A DNA stretch of 54,932 bases from a virus (lineage: Duplodnaviria > Heunggongvirae > Uroviricota > Caudoviricetes): IMG/VR virus record IMGVR_UViG_2939147180_000006, positions 1-54,932 of that record; one strand, written 5' to 3'. How positions within the stretch are numbered: position 1 is the first letter of the stretch; the number at the start of each line of letters is the position of its first letter. Positions 3,101 through 52,690 of the stretch are shown here, in pieces. Position numbers and translations under genes: made by a program. The notes beneath the pieces were generated by a model. The model did not search any database and had not been told where the DNA came from. It worked only from the letters and a program-made list of their open reading frames with translations.

Positions 3101-3476
3101 TGTTGGCAAGAAGCTGATCCATCTGACCATCACCGCCGAAATCTTCCCACCACTCTACAGCGGCGGCGATTTCTGTTTCCCTGCCCTGGTAGTAACGCAG
3201 GGTTTCAGCTACGTCCTGAGCAAGCCCATCAACTGAGATCGAGTCAGATAGTAGAATACTGAATTTTGTCCCAGCAGGGATGGCTGGGTTAGCCGCTGGT
3301 GTTACTGACAGTTCAGTGCCGCTCTTGATTTCCGTAATGGTAAAGATCTGTACAGGATTGCCAACAGCAATGAGCGTGCAACCTACACGAATGAGAGAAA
3401 GTGGCGCGGAAAAGTTTGTGCCCGTGCCTGTAACAGTATTGCCACTAATGGCAATTGTTCCAGTTGTGTAAATCAT
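150..3476 (-). CDS. Distal tail fiber protein with C-terminal peptidase-S74-type intramolecular chaperone domain
   Basis: 1108-aa ORF after J; C-terminal segment ...NQSSDRDLKDDILVIRDA... plus coiled coil typical of self-cleaving chaperone domains; AKTSETN tandem repeats near N-terminus; GGAGT RBS. Confidence 0.7.
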   Translation of the reverse strand: MIYTTGTIAISGNTVTGTGTNFSAPLSLIRVGCTLIAVGNPVQIFTITEIKSGTELSVTPAANPAIPAGTKFSILLSDSISVDGLAQDVAETLRYYQGRETEIAAAVEWWEDFGGDGQMDQLLANIRAETAKSTANAQKTESDKNAAEASKTAAAKSATAAKTSETNAKTSETNAKTSETNAKTSENRAQEYLNQMGRLTSPMVQCAWPVETSNNGAYVKIAKLSDPKSVSCHLTLMVTNGGNYGSSYGNIDFIEISARGLNDTGEVTSENISKFLSVRRLGSPNLPNDNQMRYGLVKGDGYIEVWCYQRAFIKETKVAVLAQTGNTELYIPEGYVTQTDAPSGFIESPAARIYDQVNKPSKADLGLSNAMLIGAFGLGGSGPASNGMMSNTELLKALRAKGSHFWRADKPNGSTATHYAHGSGIFSRCGDTWSAINIEYENARVKIFAGNDNKLETATYAVNELYGTQNKPSKSDVGLGNVTNDAQVKKSGDVMSGDLTISKETPSIYLRATGGTGATAVRFYTDQNQERGIIYAGQNTDTLGEVRIRAKNAKGESSGDFVVRHDGRVEARDLKVTYKISGATAELANTSTDATNTTLKISGAQHTPLVLTRTDAFKNLSIGFKVSDIEQKYLGIDDSGYLAFGGSADQKLNSRVITQAILDSGVTVGGQTTFSGLATFNAGMAGSINPETIDGKAIDLNDLVIKFADKGSVKYYQCTNAAGGNAITNKPDGVGGNFLLRVESIRKVRDSDYTNLQTLVATDTKQIYVRYCENGNWSAWSQIVVSGRNQDVTVRSLTSTTPSKLGGGRIDVLGSTSDYGSMNCTVRGVDSTGTNSAWSVGTSESTGKMLFLKNHRSSAQVLLNGDDGAVQLLSGTVNGATAQALTINKDEVNSTADLVIRKQAGTGNRFALLNSGNAELPVSIRVWGSSDRQNVFEVGTSSAYLFYAQKTSAGQLFDVNGAINCTTLNQSSDRDLKDDILVIRDATKAIRKMNGYTYTLKENGLPYAGVIAQEVMEALPEAVGSFTRYGEELQGPTVDGNELREETRYLNVDYAAVTGLLVQVARETDNRVTELEEENASLKANIAAMDERIAKLEALISQLTGSEE
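2919..3000. repeat. About 3.5 copies of a 21-bp tandem repeat inside the tail fiber gene (encodes AKTSETN repeats)
   Basis: Read directly: gcgttggtttcgcttgtcttc repeated head-to-tail. Confidence 0.7.
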
Positions 3477-3560
3477 CGCAATGACTCCATTTTGTTAATT
3501 AACGATATTATTTTAACGCTTTGTCATTGCATGTTCTATTTTTGTGTATACATTATGTAT

Positions 3561-3582
3561 AAAAAACCCCGCGACTGCGGGG
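3561..3582 (-). terminator. Rho-independent terminator immediately after J
   Basis: Minus strand GC hairpin ccccgc-agtc-gcgggg followed by TTTTTT, 7 nt after J stop. Confidence 0.6.
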
Positions 3583-3588
3583 TTGGTG

Positions 3589-6500
3589 TTAGTCGTGTGA
3601 TTCTTCCCATTTATCCCACGTACCGTTACAACGTCCAATTAATATAGTGGGGCAACATAACTGTATTTGTGTTATATCAACCGTGGTTGGCGGCGTATAT
3701 ATCTCGATGACAACATCAACAATCTGATCTGTTACACTGTCTCTACCACAAACAAACATACCGTTGGATTGTTCATTGCCAAATTTTTTCGCATCAAGCA
3801 CTTTCACTCCGTTGATAAATGCGTTTATGTACGAACTGGATAGTAACCCTGTTAATCTTGCCTGGAATAATACGTTTTTATAGGTTCCTTCTGTTGTAGA
3901 GTCAATAAAGCGATAACAAAATCTTGCTACCCTGTAAGTAGTATTAGGTACTTTGCTACTATCAGGGAAAACGTGCATTGCTACAATGTCACCAATGAAT
4001 CTGTTGGCGCGTACAGTTCCTGTAAATGTACCGCTGTCCGCATGTATTTCACCCCTTACAACAACGTTGTTAAATTCTGATGCGCCGCTTTGTGTTATCC
4101 TCCAACCACTGGAACCAGGGACGAAGTTTGCTGATTTAATTTCATTAACAATTTTAGCCATAGTAATGGAGGCATCTGCAATTTTAGCCGTCCCTATTGA
4201 CGCATCCTTAATAAACGCCTCTTTCACATACATTGCGCCGTTAGTGACATAGAATGGCGATGTATATGAACCGTTTGCTGCGGTCATTAACACGAAACGG
4301 TCAACAAGGAAAATACACTGCGACTGAAAGTTAGTGCCGTCACCAGTAAGGCCAAGCGACATACCTGCTGCGTATTTTACGCCATTGCTATCTGTGGCGA
4401 GCTTGATTGAATATGTCGCATCAACATTACCCTTAAAGTCGGTTAATGCTTTCGATGTCGTCTCTATTGCCGTCTTATTCCCGTTAACGGTCACTGTTAA
4501 CTGATCAATTTTCGTTGACAACGCCTCGTCTGCCGTAGCCATTGTCTGCGACCATTCTGTAATACTTGCGTTTACTGATTCGAAAGACGCTGAGATCTGG
4601 CTAAATTTTTCTGCGCTTGATGTTTCATGCGTAGAGAGCGCCGTTGACACTTCAGATACTTTTGAGTTGATTGTGCTGGTAAGCGATGCGCTAAGGCCGC
4701 TTATTGCGTCTGCGCGTGCTTTTGTTTCATCGGCGATGGCTTTGTCCATCCTGGTGACGTTGCTTGTCACTTTATTATCAAGCGTGCTGACACTTGCGCT
4801 AACTTCGCTGATAGCTTGTCCTCTGGCGCTTGTTTCGTCAGCAATTGCCTGATCAAGGCGGTTAACGCTTGCTTCGGTTTTCTTATCAAGGTCGGTGATC
4901 GATGCGCTTACCCCGCTAATGGCTTCCGCTGTCGCTTTTTTCTCTTCAGCAATAACGTTGTCAATACGGTCAATTTGCGCGTTTGTTTCTCTGCGGCCTT
5001 TCTTGTATTGGGCCGTAAGAGTAACTCGCGTGTTGGTTTGAGCGATTGAGTTATTGATAAGTGCAATAGATGCGTTTTGCAGGCTTGCTTTTGCCTGATT
5101 TATTTCGTCGCTGTTTTTGCCAACATTATTTTCAACAGCGCCAAGATTTGCGCTGAGGCCTGATATTGCTTGTGCACGGGCGCTTGATTCATCGGCAATT
5201 GCCTGATCAAGACGTTTAACGCTGGCGTTTGTGTTGTTCTCAAGCGTTGTTAAGTCTGCTTTAACCTCTGTTATTGCGTCGCTTCTTGCCTTCGTTTCGT
5301 CTGATATTGCTTTATCAAGGCGGGAAACGCTGGCGTCAGTTTTCTTGTCAAGGGTGTCTATCGACGCCTTCACGCCGCTGATGGCCTGTGCGCGTGCGCT
5401 GGCCTCGTCAGCGATGGCCTGGTCGAGTCTGTTCACCTCTGATTCAGTGTTGCTTTCAAGCGTGCTGATGCTTGCATTAACGCTGCTGATAGCGTCAGTG
5501 CGCGCCTTAGTTTCGTCTGCAATCGCTTTATCAAGGCGGCTAACGTTACTTGTAACCTTGCCGTCGAGTGCGGAAATTGACGCATTCACACCGTTGATGG
5601 CTTCGGTTCTCGCGCTTGTTTCATCCGCAATGGCTTTATCAAGGCGGCTTATGCTTGAATCGGTTTTCTTGTCGAGCGCTGATACTGAGGCATTTACCCC
5701 GCTAATAGCTTCGCTGCGTGCGCTTGTTTCGTCAGCAATAGCTTTATCCAGGCGTTTAACGCTGGCGTCAGTTCTCTTATCAAGTACCGAGATACTTGCG
5801 TTAACGTCACTGACCGCCTGTGTGCGGGCGTTCGTTTCATCTGCAATAGCCTGATCAAGCCTATTGACGCTGGCATCCGTTTTCTTGTCGAGATTGCTTA
5901 TTGAGGCGTTCACACCGTTAATAGCTTCAGCGCGGGCACTAGCCTCGTCAGCCACTGCGCGTTCCACACTGGAGATCTGACCTTTAAGGTTGGAATCCAT
6001 CGCGTTCATTTCTGCCGTGATGGTTTTCAGTGATTCAGCCGTTGCTTTTTTCTCTTCAGCGATAACGTTGTCAATACGGTCAATTTCCGCTTTCGTTTCC
6101 GTTCTGCCTTTTTTGTACTGGGCGGTAAGGGTAACGCGCGTGTTTGTCTGTGCAAGCGAGTTGTTGATAAGCGCCAATGACGCGTTTTGCAGGCTTGCTT
6201 TTGCTTGCTCCAGTTCACTGCCAACTTTTTCGCTGGACACTTCTAATAGGTCAATCCTGGACTCATGCTGACCAATATCATCGGCGTTTTCCTTAACTTT
6301 TTTGTAAAGATCTTCCGTTTCTTTTTTAAGTGTATCGGTGTCAGCTTTTATTGTTCCTGTTTCTGTGATCAGGTTGTCAGTGTCAGTTCTTAAATCTTCG
6401 GTTATGTTGGTCAGGTTGTCGGTTTCAGTTCTTAAATCGTCAGTTATGTTGGTCAGGTTATCAGTTGCAGTTTTGAGGTTGTCGGTCGCTGTTTTTAGTT

Positions 6501-11611: not shown

Positions 11612-11875
11612 ATGGGGAGGAGCAATCACGGCGATTATGTGTACACGTTGAAACAGGCCGCCCGCCTCGTCGGTTATCATGAACACGAATTTATTGATTT
11701 GCTGATTGAGCGCGGGATACTGTACCAGGTCTGTTTAACACTGTACCCAAAAGCGAAATACCTACAGGAAAAGTTATTCATCATCATGACGGATGAAAAC
11801 CAGGTAAATCATTCATTCGTTACTGATAAAGGCGTCAATTATCTGCGTGATAACTTACAGGACTGTATATGTTAA
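11612..11875 (+). CDS. Hypothetical protein (87 aa) with possible HTH segment
   Basis: ORF 9 nt after previous stop; segment YTLKQAARLVGYHEHEFIDLLIERGIL looks helix-turn-helix-like (inference). Confidence 0.45.
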   Translation: MGRSNHGDYVYTLKQAARLVGYHEHEFIDLLIERGILYQVCLTLYPKAKYLQEKLFIIMTDENQVNHSFVTDKGVNYLRDNLQDCIC

Positions 11876-12072
11876 AGTACGACGGTCAAAAAATGGTTAG
11901 GTTTACAGGTTTTGCTAAAGGTAACAATAGAGAATTAACAGAATATTACAGTTTAAATATTGGTGACGTTTACCGCGTGGAAATATGTCTGCCTTCAATT
12001 AATTCTTTAATAATTATAAATAAAGAAAATCAAGGCGTGCTTGTTACATTTAACGAAGTGGAGTTACCTTAA
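11869..12072 (+). CDS. Hypothetical protein (67 aa), moron operon
   Basis: ORF overlapping previous stop by 7 nt (coupled). Confidence 0.4.
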   Translation: MLKYDGQKMVRFTGFAKGNNRELTEYYSLNIGDVYRVEICLPSINSLIIINKENQGVLVTFNEVELP

Positions 12073-12162
12073 TCAATAAAGCGACGAAGTGATTGAAAAT
12101 GTTTTGGTAGTGGCTGGCGCGATTGCCATCGTTTATGCCTTTACGAGTTAATGGGGTGAATC

Positions 12163-12300
12163 ATGAAAGTCGAAGTTTTAGCACTAATTGCAATGGGCTT
12201 GATCGTCTTCGGTGTTCACGCTGCTGGTTGGGACTGGGCGGCAATAGCAAACAACATGGCGCACGCTCACCCAATGAGTTTGCTGTATATTCACTACTAA
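12163..12300 (+). CDS. Small hydrophobic membrane peptide (45 aa)
   Basis: Manually translated: MKVEVLALIAMGLIVFGVHAAGWDWAAIANNMAHAHPMSLLYIHY; below the track size cutoff; followed directly by terminator. Confidence 0.4.
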   Translation: MKVEVLALIAMGLIVFGVHAAGWDWAAIANNMAHAHPMSLLYIHY

Positions 12301-31547: not shown

Positions 31548-31859
31548 TTAAAACTCCGCACCAGGTAAGCTACGCGCTTTATTTACCGCATCTTGTTTTA
31601 ACAACAAACTGGCGTGATAACTCATGTTCAACATATTGACAGCGGGTATTCCATCATTTTCCGACTTTATTCTTAACAACTGGTTTTTAGTAAAGATCCT
31701 GTCACCATCAGTTATATATAACCAGTCTCCGCGCTTACCAACTACAACATGAGATCCACCCCAACTGTCTTTAAATTCGTAATTACAGAAAACATCACCT
31801 TCAGGCACTTCAACAAAACAGCACGCTATGAATTTATCGCTTTTCATGATTTTGCCCAT
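31548..31859 (-). CDS. Hypothetical protein (103 aa)
   Basis: Track ORF; preceded by intergenic region carrying regulatory motifs. Confidence 0.4.
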   Translation of the reverse strand: MGKIMKSDKFIACCFVEVPEGDVFCNYEFKDSWGGSHVVVGKRGDWLYITDGDRIFTKNQLLRIKSENDGIPAVNMLNMSYHASLLLKQDAVNKARSLPGAEF

Positions 31860-31876
31860 CAGTCTTTCGGTGGCTT

Positions 31877-31940
31877 ATATATAACAAAACGGCACTGCCG
31901 AAACAATGCCATTTTGTATACATTGTGATAAAGATCACAT
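31877..31940. promoter_or_regulatory. Regulatory region: inverted motif TATATAACAAAACGG-N16-CCATTTTGTATA plus CRP-consensus palindrome TGTGATAAAGATCACA
   Basis: Read directly; TGTGA-N6-TCACA at 31925..31940 matches the CRP core consensus. Confidence 0.45.
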
Positions 31941-31976
31941 TTTTATTTATTCATTAAAATCAACATTATAACGCAA

Positions 31977-32189
31977 TTAATAACGCTCGAAGCTGGCGGA
32001 AAAATCAATACTTGATATCTCACCGCCTCGATAAGTAGGCCAAAAACGCCAAATATCATCATGGTCATCAATCAAGACAACATCAGTACCTATTCTGTAA
32101 CCATCATTACCATAAATGACCTTAACATCATAAGTACGCCCAGGAGTAAAAATACTCTCATTGCTTGAGTATATGCATTTAACTTGCAT
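31977..32189 (-). CDS. Hypothetical protein (70 aa)
   Basis: Track ORF in island. Confidence 0.35.
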   Translation of the reverse strand: MQVKCIYSSNESIFTPGRTYDVKVIYGNDGYRIGTDVVLIDDHDDIWRFWPTYRGGEISSIDFSASFERY

Positions 32190-33630: not shown

Positions 33631-33986
33631 GATTTATCTCCGTAGATCTTGAATAGTTCACACGCTTCCTGATTTTCAAATATATTCATATGCAGGTCAC
33701 GCAGGCGGCGCATTGTGCGGAATCGCGGCCTGAACTCCTGGCTACGTTTAATGTATTTGCCGCCAATTGAATAAATATGCCCGTATGCGTACCATCTGTT
33801 ACCTACCCATATGTCATATTCTTTTCCTTCGTAATTGAATTTTATCGTTAGCTCGCCGACTTCAACTATTAACCCTTTATCAATGATGTCATTAAGCATT
33901 TCATCCCATTCTTTGAGGAATGGTTGTTGATAAAAACCAAAAAGCGTATTCACAGCATGACAAAGATAATCAATGATTATTTGCAT
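33621..33986 (-). CDS. Hypothetical protein (121 aa)
   Basis: Track ORF in island. Confidence 0.4.
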   Translation of the reverse strand: MQIIIDYLCHAVNTLFGFYQQPFLKEWDEMLNDIIDKGLIVEVGELTIKFNYEGKEYDIWVGNRWYAYGHIYSIGGKYIKRSQEFRPRFRTMRRLRDLHMNIFENQEACELFKIYGDKSWS

Positions 33987-33990
33987 ATTA

Positions 33991-34203
33991 TCACCACATC
34001 ATATAATAAACGTTCTCGTCAGCTAACATGTCAGCTACATCCTGCGTCATGTGTCTGGCCTCAAGGAAATATTCCTCACTATGCCATTCCCTTACAAGCA
34101 TACGCGCCCATTTACGGCGCTGGCGCTTATTGCGTCGCAGATCATCAAAAGCCTTTAATGCTTTGTCATATGCCCTTACAAGGCGCTTGCGGTTACTTTT
34201 CAT
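33991..34203 (-). CDS. Hypothetical basic protein (70 aa)
   Basis: Track ORF; Arg/Lys-rich. Confidence 0.35.
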   Translation of the reverse strand: MKSNRKRLVRAYDKALKAFDDLRRNKRQRRKWARMLVREWHSEEYFLEARHMTQDVADMLADENVYYMMW

Positions 34204-34206
34204 ATC

Positions 34207-34542
34207 TTAAAACCTATATTGCCAATAAATATCGCAGTTAATAGCAAAAACCTTAACAGGATCGTCACCAAATAAAGGATGTTGAATCGTCTTGATTGTG
34301 TACCCCATATAAGGAAGAATCAGTATTCGTTCTCTATCGTCGTTTGCAGGGTATCCCCATTTAAGAATCAATCTTGTATATTCCCTCCCCTCCAGGCGTT
34401 TACGCCAATAGTCATTATAAAGCCTGTATTCCTCCACCTTCTTTCCCGCCCGTATAGCGTGGAAGTATTCTCCTTTTAAATTCAAATGTAAGTGCTTATT
34501 TGCCATCACTATGATCCTGTAAACAGTCGTTATAGCCTTCAA
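34207..34542 (-). CDS. Hypothetical protein (111 aa)
   Basis: Track ORF in island. Confidence 0.4.
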   Translation of the reverse strand: MKAITTVYRIIVMANKHLHLNLKGEYFHAIRAGKKVEEYRLYNDYWRKRLEGREYTRLILKWGYPANDDRERILILPYMGYTIKTIQHPLFGDDPVKVFAINCDIYWQYRF

Positions 34543-42989: not shown

Positions 42990-43003
42990 GATTTAATACC
43001 TCA

Positions 43004-43282
43004 TTAATCGTTAATAACCTGACCCATACGCCCGCGATATTTGCGCATACGTGGATCGACATATTCAGGCCAATGCATATCCGGTTTTCTTTGCAGTGGG
43101 TAAAAACTTGCCTGCCAGTTGTCGAACCATATTTGTTTTGCGTACAGGTCACTAAATCTTTTTGCCATCCGTTCCGCTGCCGTTCCGCATAAAAAAAGCC
43201 CATGATCGATATGATCACGGGCTTCTTTTAGAACTTGCTCTTTTGTTCGCGGTGGCGGTGGCGGTTTTAAATAATCACCCAT
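43004..43282 (-). CDS. Hypothetical protein (92 aa)
   Basis: Track ORF. Confidence 0.35.
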   Translation of the reverse strand: MGDYLKPPPPPRTKEQVLKEARDHIDHGLFLCGTAAERMAKRFSDLYAKQIWFDNWQASFYPLQRKPDMHWPEYVDPRMRKYRGRMGQVIND

Positions 43283-46252: not shown

Positions 46253-46507
46253 ATGAGCACGAACATGATTAACAAAGCATGGAACGTAAAACTTAACAGC
46301 CCGATTCAAAAACTAGTTTTAATCTCCCTTGCTGAGACGGCGGATAGCCAGGGGCGGACAAGCGTATCACGCGAAGAAGTAGCAAAAATGTGTGAACTTC
46401 CTGTTCATACGGTACATGATGCCTTCGCCGCATTAATTAGCAAAGGGTTTGTTTGCCGTATTGATGCGTTTAGTGGTGTCTATGTAGTTATGTTGCCGGA
46501 GGAATGA
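46253..46507 (+). CDS. Winged-helix DNA-binding protein, first gene of rightward early operon
   Basis: AGGAG RBS and ATG at 46253 (table ORF has an N-terminal extension); HTH-like segment TSVSREEVAKMCELPVHTVHDAFAALISKGFV; not lambda-Cro-like. Confidence 0.45.
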   Translation: MSTNMINKAWNVKLNSPIQKLVLISLAETADSQGRTSVSREEVAKMCELPVHTVHDAFAALISKGFVCRIDAFSGVYVVMLPEE

Positions 46508-47556
46508 TTATGAAGTGGTTTAAGCATGATAGCGATGCGAACCGCGATGAAAAACTTCAAAACGTTTTATTAGATTATGGCCTGGAAGGTTACGGGCTTT
46601 ATTGGTATTGCCTTGAACTGATAACTTATGACGTAGATCAGCACAATCTTACTTTTGACCTACGACATGACGCGAGAATCATTGCGCGAAACGTCGGATC
46701 TACTGAAAAACGTATAGAAGAAATGATGAAATACTTCATCGAAATTGGTTTGTTTGAATGTTCTCAAGGCCACATAACTTGCCTAAAGTTATTAAAAAGG
46801 CTAGACCAATCAATGACTTCTAAAAGCGCTTACAGGGCCGCCATAAACACAGCGAAGGAGCAATTAAAATTAGAAAAGTTAATCAATCCAACACAAAAAG
46901 GTCATGATAGGGTCATGACCGGGTCAGGAAAGGGTCATGAATTAGAATTAGAAGAAGAAATAGAAAAAGATATATACACTTCGTGTATTGTCGAAAATGA
47001 ACAAAAAATGGTCAATCAGGATGACGTAAACGAAGCGGCGTTGCGTTGCCTGGCCTTCTACAACGACAAGGCAGGATGCAAATGTCGTGATGCGAAGCCA
47101 TTCATCGAACTACTGACAGAAACAAAAACACGTAAAGCGTATACGGAGGATGAGATCACATTGGTGATTGAGTGGGCTTTAACGCAATGGCGTAGCCGTG
47201 GTGGAACACCTAAGCCTATCAATATTTGCCGGGTAACTAAATTTGATGGGTATCTGACTGATGCTGAACAATGGCGCAAACTGTCAGCCACTGCAAACGC
47301 TGCCGACGTGGTGGAAGCATTTAACAGCACGTTTGACGGCCTGTTACCACCTGTCGAACTGGATCGGGATCTTGAACGCAAGATCTATGCGTTCACTGAC
47401 TACCTGAAAGACAAAAGCATTAACGGCTTTGTCGCCTACTTCGAAACATTCAAAAACACGGCTTCAGATTTTTACTTCGGCAATGGCTTCACGGCGACAC
47501 TTGATTTTCTGCTTAAACCAAAAACGCTACGCGATACACGCGCAGGCGCTCTTTGA
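46504..47556 (+). CDS. Replication initiation / replisome organiser protein
   Basis: 350 aa; N-terminus KWFKHDSDANRDEKLQNVLLDYGLEGYGLYWYCLE resembles phage replisome-organiser N-domain proteins; followed by helicase. Confidence 0.6.
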   Translation: MIMKWFKHDSDANRDEKLQNVLLDYGLEGYGLYWYCLELITYDVDQHNLTFDLRHDARIIARNVGSTEKRIEEMMKYFIEIGLFECSQGHITCLKLLKRLDQSMTSKSAYRAAINTAKEQLKLEKLINPTQKGHDRVMTGSGKGHELELEEEIEKDIYTSCIVENEQKMVNQDDVNEAALRCLAFYNDKAGCKCRDAKPFIELLTETKTRKAYTEDEITLVIEWALTQWRSRGGTPKPINICRVTKFDGYLTDAEQWRKLSATANAADVVEAFNSTFDGLLPPVELDRDLERKIYAFTDYLKDKSINGFVAYFETFKNTASDFYFGNGFTATLDFLLKPKTLRDTRAGAL

Positions 47557-47690
47557 CCAACCACGATCCACAAAAACCCAAAATAACCCGCAAAACAAGC
47601 TCGCCAGCGAGATAAATCGCATGTGGTGCTATACTTGCTTACCTTTTTGCGATTAGCTCGTTATAGAGCGTTACAGAGAGGATTTCAAAA

Positions 47691-47792
47691 ATGGACGGTA
47701 AACACGTTTTCGCCCTGGCTTTTGCCATCGCCGCTGCAATAGCTGTTAACGTCGCTTTGTTCGGCGGTTTGTTCCTTCTAGTCAATCCATAA
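47691..47792 (+). CDS. Small hydrophobic peptide (33 aa) MDGKHVFALAFAIAAAIAVNVALFGGLFLLVNP
   Basis: Manually translated; GAGAGGA RBS; in the rep-ant intergenic region. Confidence 0.3.
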   Translation: MDGKHVFALAFAIAAAIAVNVALFGGLFLLVNP

Positions 47793-47923
47793 CATACCTA
47801 CCAGTCAGTAAATCAAAAATTAGCCACCTGGTAGCGCCTCTGACGCAATAAGACACTGCAACCCGTGCAAATGGGTTACGCGGTGGAATTTTGCGTTGTA
47901 GAGTGTTTTACGGGGAATATACA

Positions 47924-48661
47924 ATGTCTGATTTAATGGTTTTTAATTTTGATAATAATCAAATCACTGCTGTAATTTATGATGGTAAACCTGCTTTTGT
48001 TGCGGTTGAGGTAGCGAAAACGTTAGGTTATAACGATGAGCATCAAGCTCTTAATAAGCATTGTAAGTCATTGATTAGACTTGATTCCGTCGAAACGACG
48101 TCTTTGGGTTTTGGGTTCAGACCTAAAGGAATAATTCTAATCAGGGAGGCAGACGTATACCGTCTTGTCATGCGATCGAAGCTACCATCGGCTGAGCGCT
48201 TCCAGGATTGGGTGTGCGAGGATGTTCTCCCTGCTTTGCGTGAAAATGGACATTACGGCTTTAAACCAGCTTTGCCGGATTTCACTGATCCGGTTGCGGC
48301 AGCCCGCGCATGGGCGGATGAGGTTGAGCAAAAATTGTTAGTTAAGAAAGAAAATGAACGGCTTACGCTTGAAAACAAGGTGCTGGCTCCGAAAGCGGCT
48401 GTATGTGACGCGATAGTCAAAAACGATATGCACAGAACGGCTTCAGAGGTAGCTAAACCGCTGGGAATGTCAGCCGTAAAATTAAACAGAAAACTTTCGG
48501 CGGTTGGTGTTTACGATCTTCGCTGTCGCCGCCGTGTATTCAGTCAGTGGTTTATTGATGAGGGCTACGGTGAAATGAGGGTAACTCACGATGGATATGA
48601 GCAGGCTGTATTCACTGCTAAAGGACAAGTATGGATCACTGAGCTTTTAACTTGTAACTAA
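47924..48661 (+). CDS. ant: Antirepressor (Bro-N plus KilAC/ANT domains)
   Basis: Start trimmed to MSDLMVFNF; Bro-N-like N-terminus and ANT-like C-terminal half. Confidence 0.65.
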   Translation: MSDLMVFNFDNNQITAVIYDGKPAFVAVEVAKTLGYNDEHQALNKHCKSLIRLDSVETTSLGFGFRPKGIILIREADVYRLVMRSKLPSAERFQDWVCEDVLPALRENGHYGFKPALPDFTDPVAAARAWADEVEQKLLVKKENERLTLENKVLAPKAAVCDAIVKNDMHRTASEVAKPLGMSAVKLNRKLSAVGVYDLRCRRRVFSQWFIDEGYGEMRVTHDGYEQAVFTAKGQVWITELLTCN

Positions 48662-48695: not shown

Positions 48696-49814
48696 ATGTC
48701 ACAAAGAAAGATAAGCGATGAGCAATTGATCGCTGAATATAACAACGGTTTAACGTACAAGCAGATCGCTGAAAAGTACGGCATGTCAAAACGCAACGTA
48801 GAGCGCCTGGGGGCAAAACTGGCGAAACGCGGTTTATTGTCAACACGCCGCGCGCCTGGTTTTGGCGTCAATGGCGAGTCGTTGCTAGTCGATAAGAACG
48901 GCAATGTGATCATGCGCTGGATTAAAACAGTCCGTGACCGCGATGAAATGGAACAGCTAATGGAATCGGCCCGCTACGCATTCACGGAAGAAATACCACG
49001 CGCGGAGGCAGTGCCAGTGCCGGAAATTGATTTCCAAAAAAGCCTGGCCCTTTATCCGGTATTTGATCTGCATATCGGCGCACTTGCTCACAAAGCAGAA
49101 TGCGGCGAGAGCTACGACACCGGGATCGCTGAGCGCGTGTTGAATGACTTCTTTGACTACGCGGTGGGCGCTGCGCCGATGTCTGAAAAAGCCGTTTTGC
49201 TTCTCGGTGGCGACCTGCTTCATTCTGATGGAATGGTCCCGGTTACACCAACAAGCGGGCACATTCTTGATCAAGATAGTCGTTATGCAAAACTTGTCTA
49301 TGTAGCGATCCGGTCTGTCCGGCGTGCTGTCGGGAAGATGTTGTTAAATCATAAGGATATTGAAATCCAGGTGTTATCAGGCAATCACGATCAGTCAGGG
49401 ATGATCTGGTTACGTGCGGCGCTGGCGGCTTTTTACGAAGATGAACCGCGTGTGACGGTTGATGTGTCACCTGCTATTGTTCACCACACGCAGTACGGTA
49501 AAACATTTCTCGCTTACCACCACGGGCACACTATCAAAAAGCCAGAGAATTTACTTTCTGCCTGCGTTTCTGACTGGCGGGAGGATTTCGGCAAGTCTTC
49601 GGCGGTTTACGCTCATTGTGGGCACTGGCATCATCAACGGCTGATTGAATCATCGCTAGGCGTTGTTGAGTATCACGGCACATTAGCGGGAAAAGACGCT
49701 TATTCGACTAATGGCGGCTGGCGGTCGCGGCGTCTGGCGGCGGTAATAATTTACAGTCCTGATCACGGGGAGATCGGGCGCTTTGTTTATTACCCTGAAT
49801 ATTCCATTTTGTAA
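48696..49814 (+). CDS. HTH-domain / calcineurin-like metallophosphoesterase fusion protein
   Basis: 372 aa; N-terminal HTH LTYKQIAEKYGMSKRNVERLGAKLAKRGLL; phosphoesterase motifs in order: FDLHIG, LGGDLLHSDG, LSGNHDQ, YHHGH, CGHWHH; GAGGA RBS. Confidence 0.55.
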   Translation: MSQRKISDEQLIAEYNNGLTYKQIAEKYGMSKRNVERLGAKLAKRGLLSTRRAPGFGVNGESLLVDKNGNVIMRWIKTVRDRDEMEQLMESARYAFTEEIPRAEAVPVPEIDFQKSLALYPVFDLHIGALAHKAECGESYDTGIAERVLNDFFDYAVGAAPMSEKAVLLLGGDLLHSDGMVPVTPTSGHILDQDSRYAKLVYVAIRSVRRAVGKMLLNHKDIEIQVLSGNHDQSGMIWLRAALAAFYEDEPRVTVDVSPAIVHHTQYGKTFLAYHHGHTIKKPENLLSACVSDWREDFGKSSAVYAHCGHWHHQRLIESSLGVVEYHGTLAGKDAYSTNGGWRSRRLAAVIIYSPDHGEIGRFVYYPEYSIL

Positions 49815-49832: not shown

Positions 49833-51248
49833 ATGGTAACTGAGCAAATAAACTCACTACGGCAGGAACGTGAAGCATCAGTTATCGGCGGGCTGCTGTT
49901 AGGTGGCCTTACTCCTAACGCGCAAGATGTTCTAGCCACACTTGATCCTGAAGTGTTCACGATCCCGCTTTATAAACGTGCGTTTGAAGTTATCCGGGCG
50001 CAAGCCAGAAACAGAAATCTTATCGACGCGTTATTGGTTGGCGATGAGATTGGCAATGAAAACTTTGTACCGCTAATGCAAACGGCGCGATCGTGTCCTT
50101 CTGCTGCCAACCTGAAGGGATACGCACAGCTACTACGTGAAGAGCACCAGCGGCGGCAGATGTTGGAACTCATCGACGATATGCGCTACAAACTGGAAAC
50201 TGGGACACTTGATGTCGTCAAAGAGACGATGAAAGATTTTGATTCCCGGTATTCAAAATTAAAAGTAACGAAAGACAAGATCATTCCGGTGTTGTTGCGC
50301 GATGCGGTACAGGAATACACGGAGGTTTTAAGCAAACGCATGGAATGCGGTGTCAATTCTGACAACATCAAAACAGGGGTAGAACCACTCGACGAAATGT
50401 TAGGCGGCATTAACGCTACTGATTTGGTGCTTCTCGCCGGACGTCCTGGGTCTGGTAAATCTGCGTTGGCGCTGACAATTGCCCGCGCTGCCGCTGAACG
50501 CCCTTACCCTGGCAGTAAAGATCAGCGGGTTGGCGTTTTGTTCTTCACGCTTGAAATGTCACTCGATCAGATGACTGAACGCGCCATCGCTGGCGCTGGT
50601 AATTTATCAACCGACTGCCTGCGCAATCCGGTAAAACTTGATGATGAGGGGTGGGCGCATGTCGGCCAGGGCATGAGCGCACTTGCTAACCTTGATGTGT
50701 GGATCGTTGACGCGTCGCAGTTAACGGTTGAGGAAATACGCGCAACAACGGAACGCATGAAACAGGATCACCCAAATTTGGGCATGTTAATGATTGACTA
50801 CATCGGGTTAATGAAGCTGGCTAAGGCCGAACGTCACGATCTCGCTGTAGGGCAATTGTCGTGGTCGTTGAAGATGATGGCGAAAGAATTGCGCGTACCA
50901 GTGTTGGCGCTGGCGCAGTTGTCCCGCCGCGTTGAGGAACGACCGAATAAGCGTCCTAACAATTCAGATCTTCGCGATTCCGGGAACCTTGAGCAAGACG
51001 CTGACAGGATCATCATGGTGTACCGCGATGGATATTACGATGAGCAGTCTGTAGCACGTGAATACATGGAAATAATTGTATCTAAAAACCGTCACGGGAA
51101 AACTGGTACTGTTTACCAGCGGTTTGATGACAACGGCAATATATTACCATGCGACCAGGGTAAGGCCGCCGCCGCGTGCATTCAGTCCATGAATCATCGT
51201 ACAAGCAGATTTAATCAACGAAACAATCAGAATAGCGCATCTTTTTAA
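49833..51248 (+). CDS. dnaB: Replicative DNA helicase (DnaB family)
   Basis: 471 aa; Walker A GRPGSGKSA, Walker B LMIDYIG, DnaB-type N-terminal domain. Confidence 0.85.
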   Translation: MVTEQINSLRQEREASVIGGLLLGGLTPNAQDVLATLDPEVFTIPLYKRAFEVIRAQARNRNLIDALLVGDEIGNENFVPLMQTARSCPSAANLKGYAQLLREEHQRRQMLELIDDMRYKLETGTLDVVKETMKDFDSRYSKLKVTKDKIIPVLLRDAVQEYTEVLSKRMECGVNSDNIKTGVEPLDEMLGGINATDLVLLAGRPGSGKSALALTIARAAAERPYPGSKDQRVGVLFFTLEMSLDQMTERAIAGAGNLSTDCLRNPVKLDDEGWAHVGQGMSALANLDVWIVDASQLTVEEIRATTERMKQDHPNLGMLMIDYIGLMKLAKAERHDLAVGQLSWSLKMMAKELRVPVLALAQLSRRVEERPNKRPNNSDLRDSGNLEQDADRIIMVYRDGYYDEQSVAREYMEIIVSKNRHGKTGTVYQRFDDNGNILPCDQGKAAAACIQSMNHRTSRFNQRNNQNSASF

Positions 51249-51324
51249 TTAATATGAGCAAACGGCTTACCGGAAAGTTTACCGCTTTCTGGTGGCCGTT
51301 ATCGCGTTTAAAGCGAGGCTGAAA

Positions 51325-51852
51325 ATGAAAACTTCATACCAACAACAAATAATTGATTTTTTAAATGACGCTGTTATTTCAGGTGAGGGAACGATAGTTA
51401 AATCTATTCCTGGACCTGAAGGTGAAATAATTTGCGCTTTGGATGCTTTGGTTTCTGATGGTGTTATTATAAAAGTAGATCTAAATAGTAAAAGATTATC
51501 ATATTGCTTGAAGTCAGTAAGAGAAATGGCGATAAGGGATATAATCCCTTTGTTTTCAAATAGTAGCGGGTATTTTTCAGCGGAAGATGTTAAAAATGAA
51601 TTGAATATTAATATAAACAAAGGAAAGGTCGGAAGAATATTGCGGATGTTAGGAAGTGAGAACCTATTAACTGTTAATAAGTTTGACGGTAAATATTTTT
51701 TCAGAAACGCGCGTTTTTATGGCTATTCAAATGTTATCGCATTTAATTTTAGTAACTTATTAAACGAATACCGTAAAAATAATGGGCTGCTTCCTGATAA
51801 ACCAGTATTTGAGATCGAAAAACTTAACGGCAAAAAGGGGTTGGAATTATGA
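51325..51852 (+). CDS. Hypothetical protein (176 aa) in locally AT-rich segment
   Basis: GAGGCT RBS and ATG at 51325; marked local drop in GC suggests separate acquisition. Confidence 0.45.
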   Translation: MKTSYQQQIIDFLNDAVISGEGTIVKSIPGPEGEIICALDALVSDGVIIKVDLNSKRLSYCLKSVREMAIRDIIPLFSNSSGYFSAEDVKNELNININKGKVGRILRMLGSENLLTVNKFDGKYFFRNARFYGYSNVIAFNFSNLLNEYRKNNGLLPDKPVFEIEKLNGKKGLEL

Positions 51853-52055
51853 GACGTGTAATTTTTTATTCAGTTGAAACGTTTATTGACGAATCTCACT
51901 TTAAATTCCCACGCAATCCTTGCTGCGCGATGGTTTATACACCTCCACTAATGCGCAAGTATAGGCACGTAAAATTTAACCGGGCTTTTGTGCCGATTCG
52001 TTACGCTTTGCAGGCGTTGCGCGGTGAATTACGAAACACAATGCGTATTGTGTAA
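51849..52055 (+). CDS. Hypothetical protein (68 aa)
   Basis: Track ORF; 4-nt overlap with the previous gene. Confidence 0.35.
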   Translation: MRRVIFYSVETFIDESHFKFPRNPCCAMVYTPPLMRKYRHVKFNRAFVPIRYALQALRGELRNTMRIV

Positions 52056-52064
52056 GGGGCGATC

Positions 52065-52262
52065 ATGAATAAGGAATTGGATTTAACCGTTGAAGACTTG
52101 AGCACGATTGCTGAATACATGCGAGGAGACGATCCTGATAAACCTGTCGTGGTTGACATGAAAGAGTTAAAAGAAAAATACATGACAAGCTCGCGTCTAA
52201 TTTCTTTGCAGGCGATCATGTATGCGCGGGCACAGTGGAAAAATAGTAACGGTGTATCATGA
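52065..52262 (+). CDS. Hypothetical protein (65 aa)
   Basis: Track ORF; overlaps ninB start. Confidence 0.35.
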   Translation: MNKELDLTVEDLSTIAEYMRGDDPDKPVVVDMKELKEKYMTSSRLISLQAIMYARAQWKNSNGVS

Positions 52263-52690
52263 GGCAAATAAGATTTGAGATAGTAAATGACGCCGTAAAA
52301 GAAAACGCTATCAGACAGATAAGGGATATTCAGCCTGATAGCAAAAGCCCGCTGATAATTACCATTCGGGAGAAAACCCGCTCGCTAAGTCAGAATGCGT
52401 TGCTTTGGGCGCTACTGACAGACGTTAGCGATCAGGTTAATTGGTACGGCAAGAAGCTGTCACCTGAAGACTGGAAGGCGGTATTCACTGCCGGGCTTAA
52501 GAAATATGGCGTTGTCCCTAACCTGGACAAATCAGGCTTTGTTGTTCTGGGAACATCAACCAGCCGGATGAGTAAAGCAGAATTTAGCGAATTAATCGAA
52601 CTGATCTACTCGTTCGGCGCGGAACACGGTGTTCAGTGGTCTGGCGATACGAAGTTAAACGAGGAATTTATAAAACGCTGGGGGCAATAA
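52259..52690 (+). CDS. ninB: NinB (Orf-family recombination mediator)
   Basis: 143 aa; extensive resemblance to lambda NinB incl. RSLSQNALLWA, WKAVFTAGLKK, GVVPNLDKSGFVVLGTSTSRMS. Confidence 0.85.
   Translation: MRQIRFEIVNDAVKENAIRQIRDIQPDSKSPLIITIREKTRSLSQNALLWALLTDVSDQVNWYGKKLSPEDWKAVFTAGLKKYGVVPNLDKSGFVVLGTSTSRMSKAEFSELIELIYSFGAEHGVQWSGDTKLNEEFIKRWGQ

Follow-up and report, generated by a model that had tools for sequence, protein, structure and literature searches.

A rare low-GC allele of a predicted tandem winged-helix gene family, distantly related to lambda Ren, in an mEp021-type coliphage

Introduction

In phage lambda, genes O and P, which serve replication, are followed by ren and then by ninB, and Ren's classical phenotype, reportedly described by Toothman and Herskowitz in 1980, is resistance to Rex exclusion. 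Ren is likely involved in replication and makes two-hybrid contacts to Rex proteins (bioRxiv 10.1101/2021.04.19.439022; PMC3224144). The mEp021 group of phages (mEpimmI) comprises non-lambdoid, Nus-dependent gut coliphages, all of which have one immunity repressor in common (PMC11893012). In mEp021 itself, the slot after the helicase gene is filled by mEp021_08 (gp08; 185 amino acids (aa), AXN54127), and in MagusPhagus by CDS0010 (182 aa), which is labeled MarR family. Here, we analyze the gene that occupies this slot in a 54,932-nucleotide (nt) stretch of viral DNA (IMG/VR record IMGVR_UViG_2939147180_000006, Caudoviricetes), which is called the window throughout and is about as long as one mEpimmI phage genome.

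An initial annotation, made from the letters of the window alone, had described an AT-rich open reading frame (ORF) in the position of lambda ren as a likely recent acquisition at a hotspot for morons, i.e., inserted accessory genes. Judging by synteny, this ORF is a core gene of mEp021-type (mEpimmI) phages, not an inserted extra gene or moron. Alignments identify the version carried by the window as a rare, very diverged, low-GC allele of a mosaic gene family, and profile comparisons place that family in distant, domain-level homology to lambda Ren.

Results

A core gene of extreme base composition

A plus-strand ORF is present where the initial annotation had drawn one (51279-51860, 176 aa), but its bounds and length had to be corrected. 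Translation probably starts at the ATG at 51325, 6 nt downstream of a GAGG Shine-Dalgarno sequence (51315-51318), and the stop codon is located at 51850-51852, which yields a 175-aa protein. The earlier coordinates had included 46 nt of the upstream spacer.

The compositional deviation noted earlier is real and extreme. The GC content of the ORF is 32.0%, compared to a window mean of 45.9%, and is the lowest among all 528-nt sliding windows (z = -3.86; 0.04% are as low). The ORF also ranks lowest among the 49 that reach 120 aa or more (mean 46.9%, standard deviation 3.6). GC content at third codon positions is 26.7% versus a mean of 47.2%; the bias thus exists at the codon level and goes beyond amino acid content alone. 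The next lowest GC island has 36.0% GC, and the other low-GC islands (31657-32184, 11667-12194, 3444-3971, and 33810-34337; 36.0 to 37.9%) are far milder. The alternative considered in the initial annotation, that GC content lies within normal variance, therefore does not hold. In a test for morons based on atypical base composition, the ORF scores as one (32% versus 45.9% GC, z = -3.9).

The gene content of related loci gives a different answer. In all 41 IMG/VR relatives, a gene of 175 to 185 aa begins ~80 nt after the helicase stop codon and is followed by a homolog of mEp021 gp07 and by NinB. The same layout was found in the five Escherichia coli prophages that were read. The window protein aligns over its full length with mEp021_08 and CDS0010 at about 33 to 36% identity, and the last 30 residues are nearly identical. 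Matches to the query or its flanks were obtained in 29 complete E. coli genomes overall, and wherever the slot was read, in phage records, E. coli prophages, and distant relatives alike, a homolog fills it; this statement covers the slots read and leaves aside 23 more E. coli genomes and five phage records that match the query or flanks. Distant relatives, in which the helicase is 55% identical and the initiator is of the HTH_36 type, keep the order of helicase, target homolog, small ORFs, and NinB; the helicase is also the upstream neighbor in the distant relatives L005 and L008 to L010. Presence/absence polymorphism, as expected of a moron, was not seen in the loci inspected, where the allele alone varies. 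Since the slot is occupied in every locus inspected, the ORF is not a moron insertion, and the contrary possibility raised in the initial annotation, a conserved core nin-region gene, describes what was found in this helicase-nin block. This is a very narrow family, represented by 24 of 5.8 billion protein clusters and by 7 matches among 1.84 billion representative proteins, and the result would not surprise a phage genomicist.

Codons 1 to 145 form an exchangeable cassette

Comparison with mEp021 confines the variation to a discrete part of the gene. Nucleotide identity is 92.8% in the helicase gene and 94.7% in the spacer, 47% in codons 1-145, 90% in the last 31 codons, and 94% in gp07. The value of 47% is no better than random, and identity changes abruptly between codons 1-145 and their 90 to 95% identical flanks, i.e., the cassette junctions are sharp. 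Among the 41 IMG/VR loci, the allele of the window (A; variable part 32% GC) is found in 2, a second allele (A′; protein 69 to 71% identical to A, variable part 34% GC) in 6, and the allele represented by mEp021 gp08 (B; variable part 44% GC) in 33. The A cassette occurs in differing flank backgrounds, with gp07 identity of either 74% or 96%. Together, the sharp junctions and the differing backgrounds point to horizontal exchange of codons 1-145. The proposed horizontal acquisition is thus supported as exchange of a segment, but not as acquisition of an extra gene, since a homolog fills the slot in all loci inspected.

The cassette has not diverged beyond recognition. The full window protein matches type B with an expect value (E) of 3.6e-15 and the distant type C with an E of 6e-12. 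When the tail was removed, a profile built from B and C still found the A alleles (E of 4e-6 to 1e-7; BLASTP, 1e-3), with alignments collinear over positions 3-147. This tail-free collinear match indicates that the cassette is a diverged homolog and not an unrelated gene. Residues 146-168 are near-invariant across A, A′, and B, and just the last few residues vary; the tail motif YRKxNGLLP...FE..KLN is retained even in the C class.

Between A and A′, synonymous sites are saturated (synonymous divergence, dS, of ~1.6), and the ratio of nonsynonymous to synonymous divergence (dN/dS) is 0.13; the plus-strand frame is therefore a real gene under purifying selection. A 113-aa minus-strand ORF (51279-51620) was rejected as coding on the same ground. 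Both A and A′ remain AT-rich. Their low GC content may reflect either separate imports after divergence in an AT-rich pool or selection that maintains low GC. Neither 5.8 billion protein clusters nor 1.84 billion representatives yielded a donor of the low-GC cassette, and a search of GTDB species-representative genomes for the locus gave no match.

These data bear on the proposal that the ORF is a recently inserted moron with an exclusion or anti-abortive-infection function. Extreme low GC content, sharp junctions, the presence of the A cassette in differing flank backgrounds, and a position equal to the ren slot would all suit an insertion at a nin-region hotspot. However, the slot was never empty in the 41 IMG/VR loci or in any inspected relative, and the cassette is homologous to the common allele. 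A promoter or terminator of its own did not rise above shuffled sequences: one promoter-like and one terminator-like site were detected, both inside the ORF, while shuffles lead one to expect 4.0 and 1.4. PADLOC defense-system models did not match the A or B alleles, and type C matched just the winged-helix parts of Csa3/CasR. We consider the moron explanation very unlikely. What would be annotated as a "hypothetical protein" of odd composition is a diverged allele of a core gene rather than a cargo gene, and moron hunting by composition alone would mislead at this ORF.

The protein is predicted to contain two winged helices and a conserved tail

In an AlphaFold2 model of the window protein (12-sequence alignment; predicted local distance difference test score, pLDDT, 76.6; predicted template modeling score 0.65), two winged-helix domains are followed by a helix at residues 137-152 and by a low-confidence tail (pLDDT <50 for residues 158-175). 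The initial annotation had suspected a winged helix near residue 90; in the model, the second domain spans residues 63-128 and residues 99-111 form its recognition helix, in agreement with that suspicion. This domain is basic in all four allele classes (A, A′, B, and C; isoelectric point 9.5 to 9.9), while the isoelectric point of the first domain varies among classes from 4.7 to 9.7.

The best Pfam match of the window protein was the winged-helix module PF08100 (1.2e-4), whose score of 22.2 bits is under the gathering cutoff of 25.6. An NCBIfam search of the protein returned nothing specific, and a PDB sequence search with the family profile gave a best E of 0.44. In a viral structure library, the best match was a 185-aa protein (30% identity, E of 2.3e-9, template modeling (TM) score 0.59), presumed to be a type-B gp08 homolog. 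Whole-chain Foldseek matches were to tandem winged-helix modules with E of about 4e-4 to 1e-2, and the winged-helix fold itself was nearest to MarR/ArsR/PadR repressors.

This fold resemblance, the basic second domain, and database names ("MarR family" for phrog_1687 and "Lrp/AsnC family" given by PGAP to type B) would agree with a conventional, MarR-like, sequence-specific transcription regulator that acts on phage or host promoters and whose alleles recognize different operators. Yet a Pfam match to MarR or AsnC at the gathering score was not found, and instead of a MarR dimer the architecture is a tandem winged helix with a tail. The cassette and its surroundings revealed no repeat or operator specific to an allele, the one palindrome there being explained by codons (see below), and all phages of the group have one common immunity repressor (PMC11893012). 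A role as conventional regulator is therefore doubtful in our estimate.

The family is distantly homologous to lambda Ren

The two consecutive winged-helix domains that characterize phrog_1687 are present in the window protein, as judged from the AlphaFold2 model and fold searches. The A allele of the window reaches the phrog_1687 profile weakly (E of 0.021, 15.8 bits), in an alignment that covers protein residues 5-154 and profile positions 3-153 of 162. The other classes match at 1.8e-4 (A′), 5e-9 (B), and 1e-17 and 7e-16 (C), with alignments over the full profile length. In the lambdoid Enterobacter phage vB_Ecl_MII_001, a 150-aa member of phrog_1687 (XGU09660; E of 9e-55) is encoded directly after the DnaB helicase and matches the Ren-like phrog_142 at 9.6e-11 on both domains. 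Lambda Ren (NP_040633), in turn, matches positions 1-65 of phrog_1687, i.e., domain 1, at 1.5e-10. For the B and C alleles, matches to the Ren profile are weak (2e-4 to 4e-3). XGU09660 (L007, 4983-5435) is annotated as "arginine/ornithine ABC transporter", a database misannotation of what is clearly a phrog_1687 tandem winged-helix, Ren-like protein.

The link to Ren rests on the deeper PHROG profiles and not on direct comparisons of shallow alignments. By these profiles, the family is distantly homologous to lambda Ren at the domain level, the relationship being transitive for the allele of the window, and resembles a Ren-like winged helix in tandem form. In the window, the order is helicase, target gene, two small ORFs, and ninB; as in lambda, the slot lies directly after the replication genes and before ninB. 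The equivalence with the ren position pointed out in the initial annotation was correct, and it reflects the distant homology of the family to Ren.

The spacer, a palindrome, and a putative replication origin

The spacer between the helicase gene and the target gene is more conserved than the flanking genes and was recognizable in 45 of the 49 sources scanned. In three others, the window included, the scan picked up unrelated sequence, and in one nothing; the spacer of the window was read and aligned directly. A stem-loop at 51261-51300 has a 17-bp stem with a folding energy of -30.3 kcal/mol (z = -3.8) that was reached by none of 200 shuffles. Three one-sided substitutions in relatives retain pairing (G-U to A-U, or G-C to G-U), two rare variants break a pair, and a U-tract does not follow the stem. 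An upstream ORF of 22 to 25 codons in the spacer was rejected: its start is not conserved (ATG, TTG, CTG, CTT, or ATT), and the changes are mostly nonsynonymous. An Rfam scan of positions 51100-52100 returned a chance match to a small nucleolar RNA alone.

Inside the cassette, a 23-bp near-palindrome, AACCTATTAAC-T-GTTAATAAGTT, is located at 51661-51683. It is perfect (12+1+12) in A′, and symmetric synonymous changes distinguish the alleles. Shuffling synonymous codons yields it in 31% (A) and 5% (A′) of trials, and it was therefore rejected as an operator; encoding the peptide NLLTVNKF in AT-rich codons probably produces it as a by-product. A weaker second copy is found at 43001-43017.

The near-palindrome and the position of the window's lowest GC content next to the helicase gene would also be expected if the AT-rich stretch were a cis element, an origin or DNA-unwinding element embedded in a gene as ori-lambda is in O. 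However, the common B allele has a normal GC content (44%) and lacks such repeats, and codon shuffles account for the palindrome in 5 to 31% of trials. Clear iterons with AT-rich flanks are located elsewhere, in the initiator gene. Four iterons spaced by 11 bp (GGGTCATGA, GGGTCATGA, GGGTCAGGA, and GGGTCATGA) lie at 46900-46940 within the Lin1244/DUF4373 replication-protein gene (46504-47556). The direct repeats AATTAAAATTAGAA and AATTAGAATTAGAA, both AT-rich, flank them, and this stretch has the fourth-lowest GC content in the window. The region at 46860-46955 looks like a putative lambda-O-style origin embedded in the initiator gene. An origin inside the target ORF, which itself contains no iterons, was rejected and is extremely improbable.

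The phage and its helicase-nin block

Because the flanks of the target gene match phages of the mEp021 group, the window is assigned, by sequence comparison, to an mEp021-type (mEpimmI) temperate coliphage. Read from its left end, the window encodes a CI-like repressor, the Lin1244/DUF4373 replication protein, a Bro-N/KilAC protein, a 372-aa phosphoesterase-like protein, and the helicase. To the right of the helicase follow, in order, the target gene, two small ORFs, NinB, and, at the right end of the window, the integrase. The positions of the main features are collected in Table 1. The initial annotation had placed the target ORF between dnaB and ninB; the helicase gene is indeed upstream and ninB downstream, but the two small conserved ORFs intervene before ninB. 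In the first of these, the homolog of gp07, the motif YTPPL(M/I/L)RKY is conserved, also in relatives at 55% helicase identity (YTPPLMRKY in the window).

Table 1. Positions of the target gene, its parts, and the neighboring features in the window.
Feature	Position	Strand	Evidence or remark
Target gene: 175-aa predicted tandem winged-helix protein, mEp021 gp08 homolog	51325..51852	+	ORF, Shine-Dalgarno, dN/dS, homologs
Variable low-GC cassette, codons 1-145, allele class A	51325..51759	+	31.5% GC; 47% nucleotide identity to mEp021
Winged helix 1, residues 1-62	51325..51510	+	AlphaFold2 model; acidic, isoelectric point 4.7
Winged helix 2, residues 63-128	51511..51708	+	AlphaFold2 model; basic, isoelectric point 9.9
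Conserved C-terminal tail, residues 146-175, LNEYRKNNGLLPDKPVFEIEKLN...	51760..51852	+	90% DNA identity to mEp021; predicted helix then disorder
Helicase-to-target spacer with stem-loop and ribosome-binding site	51249..51324	+	94.7% identical to mEp021
DnaB-family replicative helicase	49833..51248	+	Pfam DnaB_C 9.7e-76, DnaB 5.4e-12
68-aa ORF, mEp021 gp07 homolog	51849..52055	+	ATG overlaps target stop (ATGA); possible partner
65-aa ORF, mEp021 gp06 homolog	52065..52262	+	phrog_21123
NinB/Orf recombination mediator, end of conserved block	52259..52690	+	Pfam NinB 7.8e-47

Several further observations concern the neighboring genes. The gp07 homolog is left unannotated by RefSeq/PGAP in the E. 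coli prophages examined. In mEp021, an N4/N6 DNA methyltransferase gene (L001, 5105-5842) lies between gp06 and ninB. It is absent from the window, where gp06 overlaps ninB directly, which makes this a true presence/absence polymorphism in the nin region. Upstream of the helicase, the 372-aa protein (48696-49814) has an N-terminal helix-turn-helix (HTH) and matches phrog_704, "DNA repair exonuclease," at 1.4e-139; weak HTH matches are its sole Pfam hits. Its gene precedes the helicase gene in the window, in the mEpimmI relatives examined, and in the distant relatives L008 to L010, whereas in L005 the helicase gene directly follows the HTH_36 initiator gene. In mEp021, an HNH endonuclease gene, absent from the window, separates the corresponding 376-aa gene from the helicase gene.

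Between the initiator gene and the 372-aa gene lies a true variable hotspot (47557-48661), as seen from comparison with L001, L003, and L008. It contains a Bro-N/KilAC antirepressor-like gene in the window and in strain MIN12, a zinc-ribbon protein in mEp021 and in strain 2017C-4173W12, three tiny ORFs in MagusPhagus, and a 152-aa ORF in L008. In the window, a stretch of ~330 nt with no annotated gene (47557-47890) precedes the Bro-N/KilAC gene.

Discussion

Starting from the identity of the gene, its fold class, universal synteny, cassette structure, purifying selection, and the distant homology of the family to Ren, all of which we regard as established, we on balance favor a reading in which an exchanged allele of a two-winged-helix core gene acts as a predicted Ren-like accessory of the replication module. 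On this reading, recombination at the conserved spacer and at the conserved tail has replaced codons 1-145 with a very diverged homolog of low GC content. The second winged helix, basic in every allele class, may bind nucleic acid. The disordered conserved tail may attach the protein to a phage partner that is itself conserved: the helicase or else the 68-aa gp07 homolog, which would be translationally coupled to it through the overlap of the target stop and the gp07 start (ATGA). The protein would then be a small noncatalytic accessory of the replication module, expressed from the early-right operon, that, as proposed for Ren, modulates replication complexes or shields them, possibly against exclusion systems, and the swappable winged-helix cassette would set its specificity.

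Several points weigh against this interpretation. The window protein, taken whole or as either domain, has no match to the Ren profile at E <= 1, and its own allele reaches phrog_1687 at just 0.021, which makes the Ren link transitive. Direct hhalign comparison of the family with Ren was weak (probability 12%, P = 0.002 with 30 Ren sequences), and with a single Ren sequence the probability was 2%; these alignments are shallow. A DNA target for the protein was not found, and there are tandem winged helices, such as those of ESCRT-II and ScpB, that function solely in protein binding. Finally, synteny with the helicase could merely reflect inheritance of the block as a unit.

A different role next to the helicase would be that of a loader or adaptor for the phage DnaB-type enzyme, comparable to the tandem winged helices in Cdt1. 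The target gene invariably adjoins the helicase gene, even where the initiator gene differs, and a conserved disordered tail suits docking. Pfam, PHROG, NCBIfam, PDB, and fold searches, however, revealed no similarity to DnaC, lambda P, G39P, gp59, or DciA. Both domains have diverged by ~70% beside a helicase that is ~90% identical, which is unexpected for a core loader, and P22-type phage helicases are not known to depend on a loader. We consider this role unlikely.

The favored reading of a Ren-like replication accessory can be carried further, although the extension is quite unlikely as it stands. The protein might be a modular counter-exclusion factor derived from a duplicated Ren-like domain, with the invariant C-terminal peptide tethering it to the phage replisome and the A, A′, or B cassette choosing which abortive-infection sensor of replication intermediates, encoded by host or prophage, is blocked. 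If so, an arms race would have produced the allele classes, and those of low GC content would be imports from an unsampled AT-rich phage pool.

The analysis links three separate annotations, mEp021 gp08, the phrog_1687 "MarR" proteins, and lambda Ren, in one winged-helix family whose members keep the same slot after the replication genes. Ren has been known as a gene for 45 years; the allelic series A, A′, B, and C and the conserved tail peptide provide handles for learning what Ren-like proteins do.

Other proteins with tandem winged helices or related folds differ from the window protein. The MarR family (PF01047/PF12802) and the ArsR/PadR repressors give no family-level match, and their dimerization helices are missing from the window protein, which carries two winged helices per chain. 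The HTH_AsnC and RAM/AsnC_trans_reg domains of the Lrp/AsnC family are not matched by any allele in Pfam or NCBIfam. With ESCRT-II subunits, SelB WH2-4, RPC62, and ScpB/JetB, architecture alone is in common (TM scores of 0.3 to 0.4, 10 to 18% identity), and nothing indicates shared ancestry or function. Iteron-binding Rep initiators (RepA/RepE/pi, WH1-WH2) were not matched in Pfam, PDB, or fold searches, and the sole iterons are those in the Lin1244-type initiator gene.

Lambda Ren shares the slot of the target gene, and its winged helix is homologous to domain 1 of phrog_1687. At 96 aa, however, Ren has one winged helix and differs in its C-terminal segment, while the window protein has 175 aa with two domains and a tail; lambda uses P together with host DnaB, whereas the phage of the window encodes its own helicase. 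The proteins of phrog_1687 are likewise tandem winged-helix phage proteins of about 150 to 185 aa, encoded where the nin region starts, right behind a DnaB-type helicase, and align collinearly with the window protein at the profile level, although the lambdoid member XGU09660 lacks the conserved C-terminal tail that the window protein has. Compared to mEp021 gp08, the window protein is 10 residues shorter and about 33 to 35% identical overall but ~25 to 28% identical in the second domain, its gene has 32% rather than 44% GC, and its first domain is acidic where that of gp08 is basic. Nevertheless, gp08 and the other type-B homologs, found in mEpimmI phages and E. coli prophages, have the same slot, the same flanks, and the same plan of two winged helices followed by a tail.

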